A stretch of DNA of 64,000 nt from a phage. Numbering within the stretch: position 1 is the first letter of the stretch; every line of letters starts with the position of its first letter. Below the pieces are notes generated by a model that saw only the letters and a list, made by a program, of their open reading frames with translations, ran no database searches and was not told where the DNA came from. The stretch is from sequence record PZ295659.1; one strand, given 5' to 3'. Positions 19,275-45,668 of the stretch are shown here, piece by piece. The translations under genes were made by a program, and so were the position numbers.

Positions 19275-20375
19275 TTACGCTGTGAAGATTTTATCCCACA
19301 TCGCAACAACTGCATCTCGATTATACTTCTTCCATACTGCTTCAGCACGTTTAACTCGAGCTTCGTATGTGTCAGTGAATTCTAATACAGCTTTTGTGTA
19401 AAGCGCAACTACTTCTTTCTTAGGAGTAGAGGAATCAATTTCTACACGCACAGTATCTGGGTCGTATTCGAATGTCGCATGAGGATAATCCTTAAAAACT
19501 AACTGGATTACGGGGACACCTTTAGAGATGGCTTCAATAGAACTATTCTCTACTGTACCTGTGTCAGGACACGTATTAATAAGTGCTTTAGCTGTTTTAA
19601 GGCGTTCCATGATTTCACTGTGTGGAGCATCAATAATAACAGGATATTTAGCTGGTGGAGCCCATTTACTAGGACAGTATCCTACACCATTTTCGCCTAG
19701 TGCTTTAATCGCTTCAAGAGCAACATCGGTACGACGCATTTTAGTGTCATAACGTTGTGCACTAATAATCAGATCAGTCGCCGGAAGAACTTCAGGTTTC
19801 TCATTCAAACAAATAACCGGATAATCTTCGGCTTCAAACAACGGATTTGCTCGCCAATAATCATAATCAATTTTGTCAGTCAGAGCTGAAGTCATATGGC
19901 AATATTTACGTTCAAATTCACGGAAGGCTTTAGTAGGAGCATAACTCTTACCACCATTCTTATGAATTTGAATAGTCTGGTCCCAAATTTGAACAATGCC
20001 ACGAGATACCGGTTCAAATGGTGTTGCCATAAAATTCTTATGAACTTTAGAGAGACCTGCGTCTTTAATTGCCTGAACGGTTAGTTTAGTCGGTTCCATA
20101 GTAACAACAAAATCGTATTCATTGATGCCGGCTAGTTCAACAATCTTACGAGCCATAGTATAACTCATACCTAGACTGAATTTAGTCAGATGACCAACAG
20201 GATGGTGTGTAACTTTCCAGTCACCAAACGTGTCATTATCAAAGCCGATATAATCAATATCAGCACCGATGGACACAAGATATTTCAACACATTTAAATG
20301 TACTGCTTCAAGGCCACCTTGTACACGGTCAGGATTAAATGGGACTGCACGAGATGGGATAAACATAACTTTCAT
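19275..20375 (-). CDS. GT-B fold glycosyltransferase (candidate DNA sugar transferase)
   Basis: 366 aa; N-terminal MKVMFIPSRA... Rossmann-like start and C-terminal ENSSIEAISKGVPVI resembling the GT4 E-x7-E motif; sits between rIIA.1 and gp39. Confidence 0.65.
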   Translation of the reverse strand: MKVMFIPSRAVPFNPDRVQGGLEAVHLNVLKYLVSIGADIDYIGFDNDTFGDWKVTHHPVGHLTKFSLGMSYTMARKIVELAGINEYDFVVTMEPTKLTVQAIKDAGLSKVHKNFMATPFEPVSRGIVQIWDQTIQIHKNGGKSYAPTKAFREFERKYCHMTSALTDKIDYDYWRANPLFEAEDYPVICLNEKPEVLPATDLIISAQRYDTKMRRTDVALEAIKALGENGVGYCPSKWAPPAKYPVIIDAPHSEIMERLKTAKALINTCPDTGTVENSSIEAISKGVPVIQLVFKDYPHATFEYDPDTVRVEIDSSTPKKEVVALYTKAVLEFTDTYEARVKRAEAVWKKYNRDAVVAMWDKIFTA

Positions 20376-30951: not shown

Positions 30952-31473
30952 TTAGTAACCATTATCCTGGCGTTCAAAGTTGTGTTGGTTTTTCAGGTAA
31001 TACAGTTTGAAGATTTCTTCAGCAGAAAGTCCTAGACCTTGGAACATATTTAGAACGAAATGCAGAATATCAATCATTTCAAATTTAATTTCAAGCTGGT
31101 CTTCAGGAGACAGTTCATCGATACGACGATTTCGATATTCAGCATGTTGTGCCTTCCACGGCTTCCATACAGAGCTAGCGGCTTTTTCACCATTGCTCAT
31201 ACCACCAAGTGAAGTCAGCAGTTCACGGAATTCATCATCAATATAATCTTTCTGATTACGCAGCCAGTCAACAACATCACCAGCAGTAGCCAATTCATCA
31301 GGATGTTTGTTATGTTCAGGCTTGTCATTTGCCAGACGAACCTGTAAAGATTTCTGCATATCAAGCATTACCTGCAGAGGGTCTTTATCTTCGTGAATCA
31401 GAGCATTAAAATAAGCTTCTTCTGCTTTATCAACACCAGAAATAAGTTGTGAACATTCGTTAAAGTGCGCCAT
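30952..31473 (-). CDS. 56: dCTP pyrophosphatase gp56
   Basis: Start at ATG 31473 (MAHFNEC...), SD aaagga; MazG-like; between soc and gp61 as in T4. Confidence 0.75.
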   Translation of the reverse strand: MAHFNECSQLISGVDKAEEAYFNALIHEDKDPLQVMLDMQKSLQVRLANDKPEHNKHPDELATAGDVVDWLRNQKDYIDDEFRELLTSLGGMSNGEKAASSVWKPWKAQHAEYRNRRIDELSPEDQLEIKFEMIDILHFVLNMFQGLGLSAEEIFKLYYLKNQHNFERQDNGY

Positions 31474-39120: not shown

Positions 39121-39669
39121 TTAACGAGCCCATTTGATAATTTCTGTAATCAAATTATTACGTTCGCTTGCATTAAATCCTATAACTTTGTTAGCACCAT
39201 CATGATTAAGTAATTGATACGTTTGGATTTCGTTATGAATTGCAAACTCTTCAAAATATGAAATGACTGTATTAAAACCGAACGAAGACAAAGTAATAAG
39301 GTCGTCTTCAAAACTTTCAGTCATTTCGTTACGTGTTAAAATAATTGTGAACACATCATGGTTTTGGCAAAGACGAACATAATCCTGTTCATAAACGTCA
39401 AGAACCGAGTCCGCATCTTGTCGAATACGTCCATAAACCCAGTTACTAATATATCCACGGTCTAACAGATAAATCTTAGTAGGGTCTAAATAATTCAACA
39501 TCGTTTCGAAACAGCCAACTTCATTTCGAGACTTAACATCGAAACGTCCATCAACTGTTCGTTTAGGGAAATCAATCTTTACATATCTTTCGCTAATTTC
39601 CATTATGTCATTAATGAAAGTTGTTTTACCAGCATTATCCGGGCCATCTACTAAAATAATTTTAGCCAT
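39121..39669 (-). CDS. P-loop NTPase, nucleoside/nucleotide kinase-like
   Basis: 182 aa; Walker A ILVDGPDNAGKTTF; no direct T4 counterpart at this position. Confidence 0.5.
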   Translation of the reverse strand: MAKIILVDGPDNAGKTTFINDIMEISERYVKIDFPKRTVDGRFDVKSRNEVGCFETMLNYLDPTKIYLLDRGYISNWVYGRIRQDADSVLDVYEQDYVRLCQNHDVFTIILTRNEMTESFEDDLITLSSFGFNTVISYFEEFAIHNEIQTYQLLNHDGANKVIGFNASERNNLITEIIKWAR

Positions 39670-39670
39670 T

Positions 39671-40570
39671 TTATTCCTCGATTACGACATCTTCATATTT
39701 AGGTATATTATACGGCGAAGAAATTAAAGCATTAAAGTAGATGAACTCACCAAGACCTGGATGGAATACTTCTTCAGGATTTTCGAAATATTGAATCTTC
39801 GGTCGTCCTTTAAGAATTTGATAGTACTCAGTTTTAGTTGGGTTAAAAATTCGAATCAGCGCTTCTTCAGGATACTTATTTCTGTCGAAGCTATTATTTG
39901 GATCGGTTATATAAAGCGGTTGGCCTAATTGAATTGCACATTCAACCACTTGTTCAAAACGATAACACGGGTCACTAATTCGAAATGGATGAAAAATACC
40001 ATCTAGATGAATAGGAGCCAAATCACCTACAAGACGCTGCATGATGGAAGGACGTATAACTTTCTGCGTTACGATAATCTTATTACCATCTGCACCTGCG
40101 TTAACCAGCACTTCTTTTTGACGTTCATTCAACACAGTAGTTTGAAGTGAACGATTAACCGACAACATGTCGGTTTTTAAGAATTCGTCAATATAAAAAC
40201 GTGGTTTATTAGGGTCCGCAGTGATATTGAAATTGAATTCCACATCAAAAGCGCCGTCATATCCAGTGATATCTGTGATTAGAAAATCACAATCATAATA
40301 AGCAATTAATGAATCAACCACAAATTCATTTTCAGACCAGAAATATTTACGAGTGTTATATGCGTTATCTTTATACCATAATGGAACAAACTTAAATTCT
40401 GGGAAAAGACGTTCACATTCTTTAATATCAGATGCATTACGTGGATATGTAATCACATCACCCGGATTAGCACGGTGCAAATGAAGTTGGAAGTTGCCAT
40501 CCTTAAGGATAGCATACTGTCCAGTTTCATAAGACCGCATACTCAAGATAGGTACGCGGAAAATAGCCAT
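39671..40570 (-). CDS. Protein of unknown function at the beta-glucosyltransferase locus; candidate DNA sugar transferase
   Basis: 299 aa between uvsX and gp42; no recognisable similarity to remembered T4 beta-gt; no motifs identified. Confidence 0.35.
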   Translation of the reverse strand: MAIFRVPILSMRSYETGQYAILKDGNFQLHLHRANPGDVITYPRNASDIKECERLFPEFKFVPLWYKDNAYNTRKYFWSENEFVVDSLIAYYDCDFLITDITGYDGAFDVEFNFNITADPNKPRFYIDEFLKTDMLSVNRSLQTTVLNERQKEVLVNAGADGNKIIVTQKVIRPSIMQRLVGDLAPIHLDGIFHPFRISDPCYRFEQVVECAIQLGQPLYITDPNNSFDRNKYPEEALIRIFNPTKTEYYQILKGRPKIQYFENPEEVFHPGLGEFIYFNALISSPYNIPKYEDVVIEE

Positions 40571-41286
40571 TAGTCAAGGAATCCTTTAACATAATCAAAA
40601 TCACGTTCAAACACATGGGCACTTACCATGGTATGAGTATAATCACCAACTTCTACACCACATTCGTTAGCGATATAATGAAGTAATTTTCCTTGGAGAT
40701 AAAAATCCAACTGCATAACAACAGCACAGTTCTGAGAACGCATATGACAGTGGGTATAAAGCTTACCATCACGAATATAATAAGTCACTGAGTCAGTACA
40801 TGGATATTCAAGTGTTTCGTCCGAATCAAGCAAAGCCTGATCTGAACTTTCTAGAATTTGGAACACAACTCTTCGGGAGTTAGGCTTCTCTTTAAGTTCT
40901 TTTAGAAGAGCTGGTAATTGAGCCGCAATGCGAGGACCGTAGAAAGTGTTGAAGTTTGCAGGCAAAGCGTCTGATTTAGGTTTAGAAATAAATTTAGCGA
41001 CATTAGGATATGCCTTAAATGCTTCTTCTGCATCAGTACCACCAGAAATCATAAACTTCCAGAAGTCTTCGGCATATTCATAAGAGATGCGATTAATACG
41101 TGGATCGGTCATTTTGAATGATGAAGGGGTATCAACAACTACTGTCATAGACCCAATTTCATTACAACGTCCAATACGAGAATCAGTAACGAACTGTGGA
41201 TTTTCTAAAATTTCACGATTAACAGCTTTAAATGCGGATTGAAAATCTGCGGCTTTAATATATTTCATTGTGTTATGTTTTCCCAT
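40570..41286 (-). CDS. 42: dCMP hydroxymethylase (thymidylate synthase family)
   Basis: 238 aa; PCTDSVTYYIRDGKLYTHCHMRSQN aligns with the T4 gp42 active-site region CTNTVQYLIRD; SD gaggt; N-terminus diverged from my recollection of T4. Confidence 0.65.
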   Translation of the reverse strand: MGKHNTMKYIKAADFQSAFKAVNREILENPQFVTDSRIGRCNEIGSMTVVVDTPSSFKMTDPRINRISYEYAEDFWKFMISGGTDAEEAFKAYPNVAKFISKPKSDALPANFNTFYGPRIAAQLPALLKELKEKPNSRRVVFQILESSDQALLDSDETLEYPCTDSVTYYIRDGKLYTHCHMRSQNCAVVMQLDFYLQGKLLHYIANECGVEVGDYTHTMVSAHVFERDFDYVKGFLD

Positions 41287-41304
41287 GTTTACCTCAATAC
41301 AGTT

Positions 41305-41328
41305 ATTATATACTCAATTCATAAAGCT
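41305..41328 (-). promoter_or_regulatory. Candidate MotA-dependent middle promoter for gene 42
   Basis: Minus-strand AGCTTTA (one mismatch to the TGCTTTA MotA box) 11 nt upstream of TATAAT. Confidence 0.35.
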
Positions 41329-41406
41329 TATTTGAATTTCTTAGCAATGTTGATATAACGTAAAGCTTCAGCATCGATACTTCCAAGAACACTATGAAGA
41401 AATGCA

Positions 41407-41568
41407 TCAGCGTAGTATTCTAGTTGAACAGGTTTCTTTAATCACTTTAGCCGCTTTAGTTTCAAACAGGCCCATAAGGGCCTTTTTAAGAATTTGTTCG
41501 TTGCTGTTAATTTTCGTAGTCAAAATCTCTTCATTAAGTTGGTGGTTAAAAGTTTTTCTAGAAATCAT
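41407..41568 (-). CDS. Possible small protein (53 aa) coupled by ATGA to the Cys-rich gene
   Basis: ATG overlaps the upstream TGA; region also contains a GGCCC/GGGCC hairpin, so coding status is uncertain. Confidence 0.3.
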   Translation of the reverse strand: MISRKTFNHQLNEEILTTKINSNEQILKKALMGLFETKAAKVIKETCSTRILR

Positions 41569-42725
41569 TCCGGGTACCTCAAAGCGTCGTCAGAGTTAGT
41601 TATATCAATAATAGATATAGAGTTTTCTGCTAACCCATTTTTAGATAACTGACGTTTATAATATCTTTCACAATATGTACACGTCGTCCCGCAGATTTCA
41701 TTAGCACAATCGAAATCTGGATGTCTGAACCACCTTTTTTCTAAAAAGCCATCTAACAAAGAGGTTTCAATATTTACCGTATGTGAAAACTCGGTCTCAT
41801 TTTCAAGAGTGAAAATAGTCTCTAAAGGCTTCCACAATTCCAACAAATTACCTTCAAATTTTTCAGAAGCATAAGCTTCAAGAACTTTCAAAATGTAGTC
41901 TGTGCTACCTGTACGTCCTGAAACTTTGAATTGAGTGATACCAATATCATTATAAAGTTTCAAATCTTGAGGACGAACAAAACGAGTTCTCAACCAGTTA
42001 AATGGGTCTGTATCACGAGCTTTAATACAGTGTTGCATTGGATAGCCATTTAAGGATTTGGCATCATCTACTGTAACGTCGGTGCTATGGAAAATATAGC
42101 AAGAGTCACGATAGCTACAATGTGTTGTATACCCTTTACCAGCATTAGAACAGAACTCATTTACAAGAACTTCAAATATTATATTGTTCTTATTGCAAAA
42201 CTCTGCTGCACGCTTCAGGAAAGAAACTGAACGGTTCTTATGAATTCCACAGCAGACCTTTTTGATATTATATTGGTCATGCAAGTATTTGATTTGAGTT
42301 ACAGCATCGACATGTAGAATTGTTGAAACTTCAATCTCAATGTCTTTATTAACTTCACGAACAATTTCCATAACAACAGGGTTAGCGATAGTAATACGCC
42401 ATACGCCTATTGACCAAAGATACTGAACATAATCCTGAATAGCTTTCTTCTTCCACTCAACTAGTTCTCTTTTTGAACCAGGATTTATCGTGTTGAGTGT
42501 ATAGTTAAAGCAAATACCTAATTCGTTACAACGTTTAACATAATCTTCTAACATCTTTTTGTCAACGTCAGGAAGCCTAAAATCAGGTCTGGCTGCTACA
42601 AAAGCCATTTCTCTTGTAGAGCCGTATACTTCATTTATCAAGCTATTAGGATAAGTTTTATTGAGCTCTACGATTTTATCAAGAAGAGCTAAATCAAAAT
42701 TCGTTCCGATTTTAAAAGTATTCAT
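41565..42725 (-). CDS. Cys-rich protein of unknown function, possible metal or Fe-S binding, in the sugar-nucleotide module
   Basis: 386 aa; C-terminal CANEICGTTCTYC (C-x4-C-x3-C-x2-C) plus further Cys pairs; weak resemblance to U32-type Cys-rich segments not confirmed. Confidence 0.5.
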   Translation of the reverse strand: MNTFKIGTNFDLALLDKIVELNKTYPNSLINEVYGSTREMAFVAARPDFRLPDVDKKMLEDYVKRCNELGICFNYTLNTINPGSKRELVEWKKKAIQDYVQYLWSIGVWRITIANPVVMEIVREVNKDIEIEVSTILHVDAVTQIKYLHDQYNIKKVCCGIHKNRSVSFLKRAAEFCNKNNIIFEVLVNEFCSNAGKGYTTHCSYRDSCYIFHSTDVTVDDAKSLNGYPMQHCIKARDTDPFNWLRTRFVRPQDLKLYNDIGITQFKVSGRTGSTDYILKVLEAYASEKFEGNLLELWKPLETIFTLENETEFSHTVNIETSLLDGFLEKRWFRHPDFDCANEICGTTCTYCERYYKRQLSKNGLAENSISIIDITNSDDALRYPE

Positions 42726-42779: not shown

Positions 42780-43181
42780 TTATAGATTCGGTTTATATGA
42801 TTTAAATGTTTCGAATTCGCCTTTATTCATAAGAGCTTTGAATTCGTCAGGACGCATAGCTTTGTCGTCGATAATCCAATCATATACTGGTTTATGTGTT
42901 AGCAAATTATGGTACTTCAAGCCAATGTTTGCCAAGTTCTGAATCAGACTTGGGAGAATGTCAATTGCTATACGACCAGGACCTACTGACTTCATACCGC
43001 GAGCAGTGTAAAGCGTTATTGTATGCCCTGCATCATACAGGGCATTAATGGCAGACACCATTTCGACGTCTGGTTTGAAGTTCACGTAATCACGATTGTT
43101 ATTCCACTCGGTTATACAATCATCGACATCAAAACAAAGATTAAGCATGTTTTCTACACGGTGCATTAGATTCGTTCCCAT
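42780..43181 (-). CDS. HAD-superfamily phosphatase (small, capless)
   Basis: 133 aa; motif I-like FDVDDCIT, then LYTAR and KP...WIIDDKA; an alternative ATG at 43166 overlaps the upstream stop as TAATG. Confidence 0.55.
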   Translation of the reverse strand: MGTNLMHRVENMLNLCFDVDDCITEWNNNRDYVNFKPDVEMVSAINALYDAGHTITLYTARGMKSVGPGRIAIDILPSLIQNLANIGLKYHNLLTHKPVYDWIIDDKAMRPDEFKALMNKGEFETFKSYKPNL

Positions 43182-44851
43182 TGATGAGTGATATCGCCAC
43201 CGATTGGACGATAGGAAACACCAGTTTCTTTATCAGTTAGTACCCATTTACCAGGATTTTTTGTAATCAGAGTAGCCGTTACAGGTTCTGCTACGTCATA
43301 ACTAATAGAGCCGTCTTGAAGTACACGGCCCATGTTACGTAATTGCTTAGTCAGAAGTTCCATACCTTTATAATATGCGGCTACCGCTTTAAGTGGATTA
43401 TTCTTGAAATAACCACCTAATGCAATCCAGATAATTGCTACAGCCAAATGATGATACTCGTTAAACGAACTCATCTTTCCATATTTGTAAACTAATGGAT
43501 TGATGTTAATAGTCACATTACAAGTTGTTTCATCAATAGTAAACTGACCCCAGGTCGGATTAGCGTTGAATTCATCATAACCTGAAACAGCGTAAAGCAC
43601 TTTAGCTTCATCATACAATTTTGGCCCGTAAATCTTGGTTTCACCAAAATATCCACGAGGGTCGATAAACTTGACTTCACCATTATCAGTAATCATAGTA
43701 TTACTGAAGTTCGGGTCACCATGAATAACAGAGTACTGTCCCTGAGAACGGTTATGATAACGAATAAGGTGTTCTAAAGCTTGTTTCAACATTGGCTTCA
43801 GACGTCCAATCTTAGTGTAGTTCACATGTGTGATTTTACCAAATGAATCAATCAATGGTTGAATACTTTCACAACGATCAATAACTTTCGTATAGAATTC
43901 TTTAGTGAAATCACGACGAACAGTTTCAGGACTTACAAAATAAGTGTCTGTGCTGAATTTCAGTGCATCTAAAATTGCATCAACAATTTGTGGACGAGCA
44001 AGACTCGATTTGGATTTAATATATTCAAATGCCGGCTTACCTTTAATGCGTTCCATTTCAAAGTTATTTTCATTAACAGAAACTAACTGAGGAACTGAAT
44101 CTGATTTCACTTTAAGATACCATGAAATCTCATCTTTCTGAAGAGCTCGACCCTGTTCGGTTAATGCGAATTTAGTTACAGTTTCTTCACCAATTTCAAC
44201 TGCATTAAAACTACGATTAAGTTCACGAACTTCATGAGCTTTTTCAAGTTTAGGCATATCACCTAAATCAATTAGATTCATAAGCTCTGATTTATTGAAT
44301 GCGCTGCCGTAAAGGAATTCTACGAAATCACGCCCTTTGCAGTATTCATGAATTTCCTCATCAGTAGAACCCATATAGAATTCCCAGTCTTTGAACTGAT
44401 AAATTCCTACAACATTACCACCTGTTGAACCTACGTTAGTGATATTTTCACCGTCGAAATTATATCGACATTCGTCACCCTTAACATAGATTGCGTTAAC
44501 ATTCCAAGACCATGAACCAAAATCAGGAATAATATCGCACCAGTTAACAATTACATTATGGCTGTCTAAATCTTTGTGTAATTTAGCAAGAGCATAAGCA
44601 GAACCATACGCTTCATCAACTGTACGAATAGTCACATTGAACCCTTCTTGCTCACAATAAGCTCGAACAGTTTCAGCAAATTTTGAATGAACTACTACAA
44701 TAATTTCATCTGCGCCAAGGTCAGAATAAATTGTATACAAATTGCTCAGAATAGTGTCTTGTTTATAGTTAACAAGCACCTTAGGAATATGATGCGTTAT
44801 TGGATACAAACGAGTTGCCAGTCCAGCACCAAGAATAACAGCTTTTTTCAT
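43166..44851 (-). CDS. Bifunctional sugar-1-phosphate nucleotidyltransferase / APH-fold sugar kinase fusion
   Basis: 561 aa; N-terminal AVILGAGLATRLYP (RmlA-type G-x-G-T-R-L), C-terminal VIHGDPNFSNTMI...FIDPRG (Brenner and D-x-x-G motifs of choline/aminoglycoside kinase fold). Confidence 0.65.
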   Translation of the reverse strand: MKKAVILGAGLATRLYPITHHIPKVLVNYKQDTILSNLYTIYSDLGADEIIVVVHSKFAETVRAYCEQEGFNVTIRTVDEAYGSAYALAKLHKDLDSHNVIVNWCDIIPDFGSWSWNVNAIYVKGDECRYNFDGENITNVGSTGGNVVGIYQFKDWEFYMGSTDEEIHEYCKGRDFVEFLYGSAFNKSELMNLIDLGDMPKLEKAHEVRELNRSFNAVEIGEETVTKFALTEQGRALQKDEISWYLKVKSDSVPQLVSVNENNFEMERIKGKPAFEYIKSKSSLARPQIVDAILDALKFSTDTYFVSPETVRRDFTKEFYTKVIDRCESIQPLIDSFGKITHVNYTKIGRLKPMLKQALEHLIRYHNRSQGQYSVIHGDPNFSNTMITDNGEVKFIDPRGYFGETKIYGPKLYDEAKVLYAVSGYDEFNANPTWGQFTIDETTCNVTININPLVYKYGKMSSFNEYHHLAVAIIWIALGGYFKNNPLKAVAAYYKGMELLTKQLRNMGRVLQDGSISYDVAEPVTATLITKNPGKWVLTDKETGVSYRPIGGDITHQWERI

Positions 44852-44892: not shown

Positions 44893-45036
44893 CTAGTTAA
44901 AGCATTCATACTTTGCTTGTAGTCCAATCATAATCCATCCGATTACAAGTGTTGGAATCATTACTGGAGCCGTTAAGCTCCAGTAGATAGTCATGACAAG
45001 CATCAATAGTAAAAGTCCTATTGTTATTGCTTTCAT
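44893..45036 (-). CDS. Small hydrophobic peptide (47 aa) coupled by ATGA to the isomerase gene
   Basis: MKAITIGLLLLMLVMTIYWSLTAPVMIPTLVIGWIMIGL...; ATG overlaps the TGA of the SIS gene. Confidence 0.4.
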   Translation of the reverse strand: MKAITIGLLLLMLVMTIYWSLTAPVMIPTLVIGWIMIGLQAKYECFN

Positions 45037-45668
45037 TGTTCGCCTCGTAACATGGCACCTAGTGCACCGCCAGGGTGGAACTTAAGGAAGTCATTAGAGG
45101 TAAATCCACGTTCAGACGAAAGGTTGATAGCAAACGTATCGATAAGCGCTAACAACAATGTAGTGGACATGGTCGGAGCCAGAGAATTCTCATCAACCTC
45201 TACTGCGATGCCTGTACAGAACGTATAATCAAAAAGAGCTTCATATTCTTGTGGAATGTCTGGGTTACAATGCAACAGAATCTGTTTGACGTTCGGACGA
45301 ATCATTTTAAGATGCTTAGCCACGCCTATCATTTCTTCAGTTTTACCAGAACGACTAATATGAATCAACACATCATTAGGCGCAATGAATCCTGCATCAC
45401 CGTGAGAATAATGCCCGGTGTTCAAGTACATACTAGGGATACCGAGTGAAGCAAATGTTTCAGAAGCTTTAGTTGCAATATTAGCATTCTTACCAACACC
45501 TGTAATAATTACTCGGCTTTCATAATTACTAAGCCCTGGGCGTCGAAGAGTTTCTAGAATAGCATTATAACGAGCAGGGTTTTGACTAATTACTTTGGCC
45601 ATAGCGGCCAAAGAAGAAGCTTGTTTTATGATTGCGTCAATAGCGATAGTAATAGGAGTAGTTTTCAT
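45033..45668 (-). CDS. SIS-domain sugar-phosphate isomerase, KdsD/GutQ-like (arabinose-5-phosphate isomerase type) without CBS domains
   Basis: 211 aa; ITGVGKNANIATKASETFASLGIPSMYLNTGHYSHGDAGFIAPNDVLIHISRSGKT parallels the KdsD SIS core GMGKSGHIG...HGDLG...ISNSGES. Confidence 0.7.
   Translation of the reverse strand: MKTTPITIAIDAIIKQASSLAAMAKVISQNPARYNAILETLRRPGLSNYESRVIITGVGKNANIATKASETFASLGIPSMYLNTGHYSHGDAGFIAPNDVLIHISRSGKTEEMIGVAKHLKMIRPNVKQILLHCNPDIPQEYEALFDYTFCTGIAVEVDENSLAPTMSTTLLLALIDTFAINLSSERGFTSNDFLKFHPGGALGAMLRGEQ

Follow-up and report, generated by a model that had tools for sequence, protein, structure and literature searches.

The DNA of phages RB69 and DLP3 contains mono- and poly-arabinosylated cytosines with an ether oxygen placed directly at C5 (Lee et al., NAR 2026, PMC13326640). 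For RB69 this base has been described as arabosyl-5-hydroxycytosine, the sugar being ether-linked to C5, and the former assignment as arabinosyl-hydroxymethylcytosine (ara-hmC) has been termed erroneous (PMC13390438). RB69 gp48, together with the deoxynucleoside monophosphate (dNMP) kinase of the same phage, gives rise to 5-hydroxydeoxycytidine (5hodC) in Escherichia coli DNA; its product is labelled by 18O2 (+2 Da) and a flavin resembling flavin mononucleotide (FMN) co-purifies with the protein (PMC13326640). In the same assay, the 5hodC of this orthologue was chromatographically resolved from the 5-hydroxymethyldeoxycytidine (5hmdC) of T4 gp42 (PMC13326640). Asparagine at the position of Asp169 in the E. 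coli thymidylate synthase (TS) ThyA was found to be diagnostic, with nine of nine diverse D169N homologues making 5hodC (PMC13326640). He et al. (Nat Chem Biol 2026) are cited in that paper for a flavin-bound crystal structure of the phage HY126 enzyme and for its in vitro reconstitution. Here, we describe the corresponding gene in a 64,000-nucleotide stretch of phage DNA (sequence record PZ295659.1, the whole of which is referred to as the window), where it lies on the minus strand at 40570–41286 and encodes 238 amino acids (aa), together with a neighbouring gene for a protein of the U32 family.

The open reading frame (ORF) at 40570–41286 very probably encodes a phage deoxycytidine monophosphate (dCMP) 5-hydroxylase, that is, a 5-hydroxy-dCMP synthase of the RB69 gp48/HY126 AfhB family. 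The initial annotation of this DNA had placed the ORF at exactly these coordinates, leaving the strand unstated, and the two motifs it named, PCTDSVTYYIRD and HCHMRSQN, both occur in the translation. Homology is far beyond chance, since Pfam Thymidylat_synt matches residues 122–235 (E=2.4e-15), BLASTP aligns residues 27–230 with T4 gp42 (25% identity, E=1e-12), the ORF is the only one with a TS fold in the window, and the protein is 99.6% identical to a PDB chain. It differs from RB69 gp48 at two residues (99.2% identity) and from HY126 AfhB at one, E87K (99.6%). That the window might encode another, genuine gp42 was considered and rejected: the queries T4 gp42 and E. coli ThyA matched only 40570–41286 in tblastn, and RB69 has none annotated.

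A sequence search of the PDB returned 9IQC, 9IR2 and 9IQU, which are one residue (E87K) from the window protein; the translated HY126 gene equals the 9IQC chain exactly. Entry 9IQC is titled "Monooxygenase dependent on riboflavin with dCMP and FAD" and 9IQU "phage HY126 dCMP hydroxylase-AfhB with substrate dCMP", both having been released on 2025-07-16. When an AlphaFold2 (AF2) model of the window protein (pLDDT 86.4, pTM 0.85) was used in a fold search, 9IQC and 9IQU ranked top with a TM of 0.93 (rmsd 2.0 Å for 9IQC), followed by the MilA CMP hydroxymethylase and ordinary thymidylate synthases, with T4 gp42 absent from the 50 best matches. As the gene is a member of a family characterised in 2025–2026, this finding is already known. 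Flavin- and O2-dependent formation of 5-hydroxy-dCMP was demonstrated with the orthologues, and the window copy would be expected to share it in view of the 99.2–99.6% identity, the signature residues and the synteny of the full cluster.

Signature residues were assessed by aligning the window protein with T4 gp42 and E. coli ThyA, and their conservation over the 120 closest homologues (54–98% identity). The protein carries the complete published signature, which in E. coli ThyA numbering consists of C146, L143E, N177D and the diagnostic D169N. The residues concerned are Cys163 (ThyA C146, T4 gp42 Cys148), Glu160 (L143, D145), Asp194 (N177, D179) and Asn186 within MRSQN (D169, D171), while Arg183-Ser184 corresponds to R166-S167 of ThyA and R168-S169 of gp42. 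N169, D177, E143, C146 and V173 were invariant in 120 of 120 homologues; the folate-contacting W80 is replaced among them by Ala or Ser, and W83 by Ile, Leu, Val or Met (Thr in one). The Trp80/Trp83 region of TS and gp42 is replaced by a near-invariant block specific to the family (residues 93–119, YPNVAKFIxKPKSDxLPANFNTFYGPR), and the C-terminal tail that closes over folate in TS is absent from the window protein.

These residues bear on the function first proposed for the gene, that of a T4-type folate-dependent dCMP hydroxymethylase (gp42, EC 2.1.2.8) whose product, hydroxymethyl-dCMP (hm-dCMP), is glycosylated later. The catalytic segment does align with that of T4 gp42 as had been described (PCT/MCT at Cys148, MRSQN/MRSND, and LD/ND at Asp179), so that a gp42-type TS fold with the nucleophilic Cys, the equivalent of Asp179 and an acidic residue at the L143 position is present. 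To this may be added the BLASTP match, the location of the gene where gp42 is encoded in T4, with uvsX and gene 43 on either side, the many GenBank records that annotate a hydroxymethylase, and the report of ara-hmC in RB69 (Thomas et al., 2018). However, the folate site of gp42 is not conserved, as Asn186 stands in place of Asp171 (Ec D169) and Ala in place of the folate-contacting Trp (Ec W80), a change seen family-wide, and the PDB structures of the orthologue contain, by their titles, flavin and not folate. The orthologue product is 5hodC with oxygen derived from O2, distinct from the 5hmdC of gp42 (PMC13326640), and the ara-hmC assignment is the one now regarded as an error (PMC13390438). 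A gp42-type hydroxymethylase is thus already refuted for the orthologues and is very improbable for the window protein.

What the initial annotation called a dCMP hydroxymethylase homolog is therefore a homologue of gp42 within the TS superfamily, but not a hydroxymethylase, given that the orthologues make 5-hydroxy-dCMP. Its choice of hydroxymethylcytosine (hmC) as the base has to be abandoned, the arabinose of RB69 being linked at C5 through oxygen (PMC13326640, PMC13390438), whereas the view that the protein makes a base which is subsequently glycosylated agrees with the orthologue data and with the surrounding arabinosylation cluster. That dCMP is the substrate follows from the presence of the Asp that specifies cytosine. 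The N-terminus had also been described as diverged. Identity to T4 gp42 is in fact uniformly low (26% over residues 1–120 and 28% over residues 121–238), which rules out divergence of the N-terminus alone and indicates a separate TS branch rather than a gp42 with an altered N-terminus, although the family-specific block at residues 93–119 is real.

Many database records name proteins of this type as a canonical thymidylate synthase, converting dUMP to dTMP; in GenBank the family is called either "thymidylate synthase" or dCMP hydroxymethylase in many records. The best Pfam and NCBIfam matches are indeed TS models. However, every NCBIfam match scored far under its cut-off (17–70 bits against cut-offs of 108–427), and the residues at ThyA N177, L143, D169 and W80/W83 are D, E, N and A/I, the first of these changes conferring cytosine specificity. 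With Asp169, Trp80, Trp83 and the C-terminal tail all absent, and 5hodC as the product measured for the orthologue (PMC13326640), a thymidylate synthase can be considered almost inconceivable. It had been suggested that clustering with thymidylate synthases or with hydroxymethylases would distinguish between the two. The protein clusters cleanly with neither: it falls in a clade of its own, to which such a criterion is not cleanly applicable, with a family hidden Markov model (HMM) giving 47 bits for T4 gp42 and 34.5 bits for EcThyA.

The genome setting supports the same assignment. The window comes from an RB69-like coliphage of the genus Mosigvirus: the region shares 98–99% identity with genomes of this type, most closely with that of phage HY126, and RB69 stands at 97.9%. 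The RB69 counterpart of the gene is ORF048c/gp48, flanked by uvsX and gene 43, an interval that in T4 holds beta-gt and gene 42; RB69 carries no further gp42-like gene there. The published arabinosylation gene set is complete in the window and collinear with RB69, the neighbouring cluster comprising the kinase gp45, gp46:47, the TS homologue, ORF049, the U32 protein gp50, gp51, gp52:53 and gp55, with the gp56 dCTPase and ORF003c likewise encoded in the window (Table 1). In the RB69 reference both gp46/gp47 and gp52/gp53 are split, which has been attributed to sequencing errors (PMC13326640), a view supported here by the unsplit state of both gp46:47 (299 aa) and gp52:53 (561 aa).

Table 1. Features of the hydroxylase locus and associated genes in the window.
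Feature	Coordinates	Strand	Basis
dCMP 5-hydroxylase / 5-hydroxy-dCMP synthase (very probable)	40570..41286	-	Pfam TS; 99.6% to 9IQC/9IQU; 99.2% to RB69 gp48; signature residues
Shine-Dalgarno GAGG, 5 nt upstream of ATG 41286-41284	41292..41295	-	sequence read directly
Possible T4-type middle promoter: GCTTTA 41327-41322, 11-nt spacer, TATAAT 41310-41305	41305..41327	-	inferred only
TAATG stop/start overlap of hydroxylase and downstream arabinosyltransferase gene	40568..40572	-	sequence read directly
Thymidylate-kinase-like nucleotide kinase (RB69 gp45), predicted function	39121..39669	-	PMC13326640 Table 1
Putative DNA arabinosyltransferase 1 (RB69 gp46:47), 299 aa, one intact ORF	39671..40570	-	predicted, PMC13326640 Table 1
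ORF049, small protein, start/stop-coupled to U32	41329..41568	-	frameshifted; 53-aa ORF remains at 41407-41568
U32-family Fe-S protein (RB69 gp50), putative hydroxylase	41565..42725	-	Pfam Peptidase_U32 E=6e-11; nine invariant Cys; alignment; contexts
HAD-type phosphatase (RB69 gp51 / HY126 AfhF), Araf-1,5-P2 to Araf-1-P	42780..43181	-	AfhF function from PMC13326640
Bifunctional arabinose-5-P kinase / UDP-arabinose pyrophosphorylase (RB69 gp52:53 / HY126 AfhE), 561 aa, intact	43166..44851	-	PMC13326640
Arabinose-5-phosphate isomerase (RB69 gp55)	45033..45668	-	RB69 annotation; PMC13326640 Table 1
dCTPase gp56 (RB69p028), supplies dCMP, removes dCTP	30955..31473	-	tblastn 97% identity, full length; RB69 annotation
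Putative arabinosyltransferase 2 (RB69p003)	19278..20375	-	tblastn 98% identity, full length; PMC13326640 Table 1

A pathway can be proposed in which the TS scaffold has been kept for handling of the nucleotide, with Arg138, Arg139, Arg183 and Ser184 holding the phosphate, Asp194 reading N3/N4 of cytosine and Cys163 attacking C6, the last role being suggested by TS chemistry. Methylene-tetrahydrofolate would have been swapped for a reduced flavin, which would react with O2 and deliver a hydroxyl group to C5. Phosphorylation of the resulting 5-hydroxy-dCMP would fall to the dNMP kinase of the phage and to kinases of the host, after which gp43 would incorporate it instead of dCMP, with gp56 presumably destroying dCTP. 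Finally, the 5-hydroxyl group would be arabinosylated on the DNA by the neighbouring glycosyltransferases, using UDP-arabinofuranose supplied by the rest of the cluster.

Some points weigh against assigning the hydroxylase function. The experiments were made on orthologues, from which the window copy differs by E87K (AfhB) or by two residues (RB69 gp48), and the in vitro reconstitution of He et al. (2026) is represented here by its citation in PMC13326640 and by the PDB titles. The cofactor also varies, being FMN in one study and FAD or riboflavin in the PDB titles, and that Cys163 takes part in catalysis of the hydroxylation is supposed by analogy with TS chemistry.

In three related large-phage metagenomic contigs a gene of the Flavodoxin_2/FMN-reductase type lies directly upstream of an N169-type TS homologue (L008 7162-7668, L011 7475-7969 and L012 7497-7991). 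This gene is likely a dedicated flavin reductase partner of the TS-fold hydroxylase, and as such provides support, independent of the literature, for a flavin-dependent enzyme.

Concerning expression, the TAATG overlap suggests that the hydroxylase and arabinosyltransferase genes are translationally coupled. Upstream of the hydroxylase gene, the GCTTTA/TATAAT pair resembles the MotA-box/-10 consensus of MotA-dependent middle promoters of T4. This element was not flagged in a generic sigma-70 scan of 39–46 kb, which gave 22 promoter-like matches compared with 27.1 in shuffled sequences and hence no excess above chance. A terminator scan of the same interval gave 6 matches compared with 3.6 (sd 1.8) in shuffles, which is not clearly above.

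ORF049, 79 aa in RB69, is disrupted in the window by one extra A within an A-run at ~41432–41434. Of 163 phage records, 155 have the unbroken 79-aa form, with the copies of HY126 and PNJ-6 also appearing disrupted, and distant homologues occur in Yersinia and Serratia phages. The possibility that ORF049 is a diverged chorismate mutase was rejected, as it has no Pfam or NCBIfam match and no BLASTP similarity to phage chorismate mutase, and in Yersinia phages an ORF049-like gene coexists with a chorismate mutase.

The known reaction of the hydroxylase requires O2, and the hosts are facultative anaerobes of the gut. This leaves a logical gap, which is the sole argument for a dual-mode enzyme that hydroxylates with flavin and O2 aerobically and turns to another donor without O2 (for example, folate and water, giving hm-dCMP). 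Such an enzyme is most unlikely, as the folate-binding residues are lost family-wide, hmC is unreported in the re-analyses (PMC13326640, PMC13390438), and the gap without O2 is filled more economically by the neighbouring U32 gene.

The U32 gene lies two genes upstream of the TS-fold hydroxylase, and its product, gp50, contains a Peptidase_U32 domain (42.4 bits against a Pfam gathering threshold (GA) of 22.4). Lee et al. guess at a "sugar or heterocycle reductase" for gp50, with chorismate and U32 unmentioned (PMC13326640). Roles described for U32 proteins are those of RlhA in forming ho5C2501 of 23S rRNA, of TrhP in forming ho5U34 of tRNA and of UbiU/V in anaerobic ubiquinone hydroxylations, all of these being O2-independent Fe-S proteins (PMC10990095, PMC6747719, PMC6599085, PMC5727448). 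Prephenate is the oxygen donor for UbiU/V and has been proposed to serve every member of the family in this way, but a direct demonstration of hydroxylase activity is still lacking for all U32 proteins (PMC10990095, PMC6747719, PMC6599085, PMC5727448). When gp50 was aligned with UbiU, UbiV, TrhP and RlhA of E. coli, C192, C209 and C233 (each 120/120 among homologues) fell on C169, C193 and C232 of UbiU, which belong to the four-Cys [4Fe-4S] ligand motif CX6CX15-16CXnC, in an alignment of only 15–22% identity. At that same low identity the position of UbiU C176 is Tyr in gp50, and an invariant C203 (120/120) occurs four residues downstream. In all, nine cysteines of gp50 are invariant over 120 homologues, including a C-terminal CX4CX3CX2C motif. 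A PDB sequence search with gp50 gave no meaningful match.

Phage records with the U32 protein numbered 222 by tblastn, all at least 81% identical. Enterobacterales dominate the tally of organism names, with Shewanella also among the listed matches; Acinetobacter and Rhizobium, in which the TS homologue occurs in 64 and 22 records, respectively, are not among the ten commonest U32 names listed (of 17). As a prospective check of this host distribution, the clusters of Pseudomonas phage PspYZU05 and of one Acinetobacter phage of the Acj61 type were inspected, in which SIS, NTP-transferase, TS, glycosyltransferase and kinase genes were present and U32 was not found. DLP3 likewise has no U32 (PMC13326640). 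In a neighbour-joining (NJ) tree without bootstraps, the partner of PspYZU05 is Thanatos, a phage that has U32, and the two lie apart from the Acinetobacter clade; the tree suggests at least two independent changes in U32 presence. The correlation of U32 with host aerobiosis holds, related phages that infect strict aerobes having no U32 in the clusters inspected, but it is phylogenetically shallow and can be regarded as supportive only.

A link to prephenate supply was found in the gene order. In Klebsiella phage KLB31 a monofunctional chorismate mutase is encoded between the U32 and TS genes (L002 4783-5022; CM_2, 38.5 bits against a GA of 27), and homologues occupy this slot in 48 phage records from ~11 host genera. 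Among the T-even-like viral loci, 12 of 15 have the chorismate mutase (L021–L031, L033), and all 15 pair U32 with an N169-type TS homologue and not with a gp42-type gene. Mosigviruses, including the window, have no chorismate mutase in the U32-TS slot.

Distant U32 homologues form a large clade in other viral contigs (25–58% identity), and at 38 of 46 such loci no TS-fold gene was found within 7 kb on either side. At five of the loci a fused DAHP-synthase/chorismate mutase is located beside U32 (L044 5411-6433, L046 9-971, L047 5321-6376, L048 5332-6387 and L058 8079-9197), and at another a DAHP-synthase-family gene lies directly downstream (L016 10145-10891). These fusions are a second, independent link of the U32 clade to prephenate supply. 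Of the Pfam families tallied over 125 ORFs around distant U32 genes, Thymidylate_kin, DAHP_synth_1, CM_2, DnaE and dCMP deaminase lead. Three very large phage-like contigs have U32 in other nucleotide-related contexts. In two (L013 8447-10086 and L015 8279-9858), it lies between a dCMP-deaminase-like gene, DnaE, UDG, a Tmk-like kinase, MazG and a radical-SAM/SPASM gene, and in the third (L014 9001-11888) beside NT5C, dNK and a nucleoside deoxyribosyltransferase. Such contexts suggest undescribed pyrimidine hypermodification pathways. In a 61-kb viral contig (L017 9001-11000), the gene directly after U32 encodes a TET-associated glycosyltransferase (TAGT; 33.9 bits, GA 27.5), with dUTPase/DCD and UDP-galactopyranose mutase nearby and no TS homologue within 9 kb. 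U32 here occupies the position in which a base-hydroxylating TET would normally sit.

Where TS-like genes do adjoin distant U32 genes, Asp169 is replaced by Asn or Ser, and V173 and D177 are present. Serine (RSQS), together with V173 and D177, was observed in the U32-adjacent TS-fold genes at L065 5913-6944 and L070 5852-6871. This is a third state of the Asp169 position, beside the folate-type Asp and the hydroxylase-type Asn.

On the basis of gene content and sequence, the locus may hold two parallel routes to 5-hydroxycytosine, one through the flavin/O2 TS-fold hydroxylase and the other through the U32 protein. The latter is a putative C5 hydroxylase, acting on dCMP or on dC within DNA, that would draw on prephenate and need no O2; we put this forward tentatively, as somewhat short of an even chance. 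The U32 route would keep hypermodification of the phage DNA going in the anoxic gut. More broadly, hydroxylation of pyrimidine deoxynucleotides or DNA with prephenate would be the most economical account of the U32 clade, if still a conjecture with somewhat more to be said against it than for it. The low identity of the alignment to the E. coli proteins tells against it, as do the lack of chorismate mutase in Mosigviruses and the few independent events on which the host correlation is based, and the substrate may be another one (tRNA, a sugar or a flavin).

The value of the window gene is that of a correction, in that its resemblance to gp42 and the pre-2025 literature lead to the wrong base, hmC. 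The D169N signature allows annotators to separate hydroxylase from hydroxymethylase, and the correct base is important when one wants to predict the restriction, type IV and glycosylase defences that a therapeutic phage will escape. The U32 neighbour outweighs the flagged gene in importance. If its proposed role is true, it would be the first viral member of its family and the first to act on DNA precursors, would make clear how a DNA modification pathway that requires O2 can operate when the hosts are anaerobic, and would suggest that many phage DNA hypermodifications, as yet uncharacterised, begin with U32 in the absence of a TS homologue.

Compared with known systems, the window protein is closest to the flavin-dependent 5-hydroxy-dCMP synthases HY126 AfhB, RB69 gp48 and Acinetobacter phage DLP3 gp80 (PDB 9IQC, 9IQU, 9IR2). 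With AfhB and gp48 it shares its length, the signature (C146, E143, N169, D177), the gene neighbourhood and the phage genus, and neither E87K (compared with AfhB) nor the two substitutions compared with gp48 have any apparent functional consequence. T4 gp42 resembles it in TS fold, catalytic Cys, cytosine-selecting Asp, acidic residue at the L143 position, dCMP substrate, genomic slot and the role of making a base for later glycosylation. It differs in having about 25–28% identity throughout, and the window protein has Asn for Asp171 and lacks the folate Trp; gp42 uses methylene-tetrahydrofolate (CH2-THF) and water to give a 5-CH2OH product, whereas an enzyme of the AfhB/gp48 type uses flavin and O2 to give a 5-OH product. 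Outside the family, the nearest structure is that of the MilA CMP hydroxymethylase (PDB 5B6D, 5JNH), with a Foldseek E of ~1e-16 and a TMq of 0.83. MilA, too, is cytosine-specific, with Asp at the N177 and L143 positions (PMC13326640), but has 22% identity, a ribonucleotide substrate, folate-dependent hydroxymethylation and an extra C-terminal region (~320 aa). E. coli ThyA shares the fold, Cys146 and the phosphate-binding Arg126/127/166 and Ser167. In the window protein, however, N177D, L143E, D169N, W80A and W83I are found and the C-terminal tail is missing, with 17% identity over the N-terminal half and 31% over the C-terminal one.

The U32 protein resembles RlhA, TrhP, UbiU and UbiV in its domain and possibly in three aligned cysteines with a fourth close by, and it is linked genomically to chorismate mutase, the source of the prephenate that is the oxygen donor of UbiU/V. 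Identity to these E. coli proteins is 15–22%, however, and gp50 has a shifted second Cys and the extra invariant CX4CX3CX2C. Unlike them, it is viral and located among genes for deoxynucleotide metabolism and DNA glycosylation. RlhA sets a precedent for C5 hydroxylation of cytosine. The folate/water chemistry of T4 requires no O2-independent backup, unlike a flavin/O2 hydroxylase, and the proposed pairing of the TS homologue with U32 would mirror that of UbiI/H/F with UbiU/V and of TrhO with TrhP.

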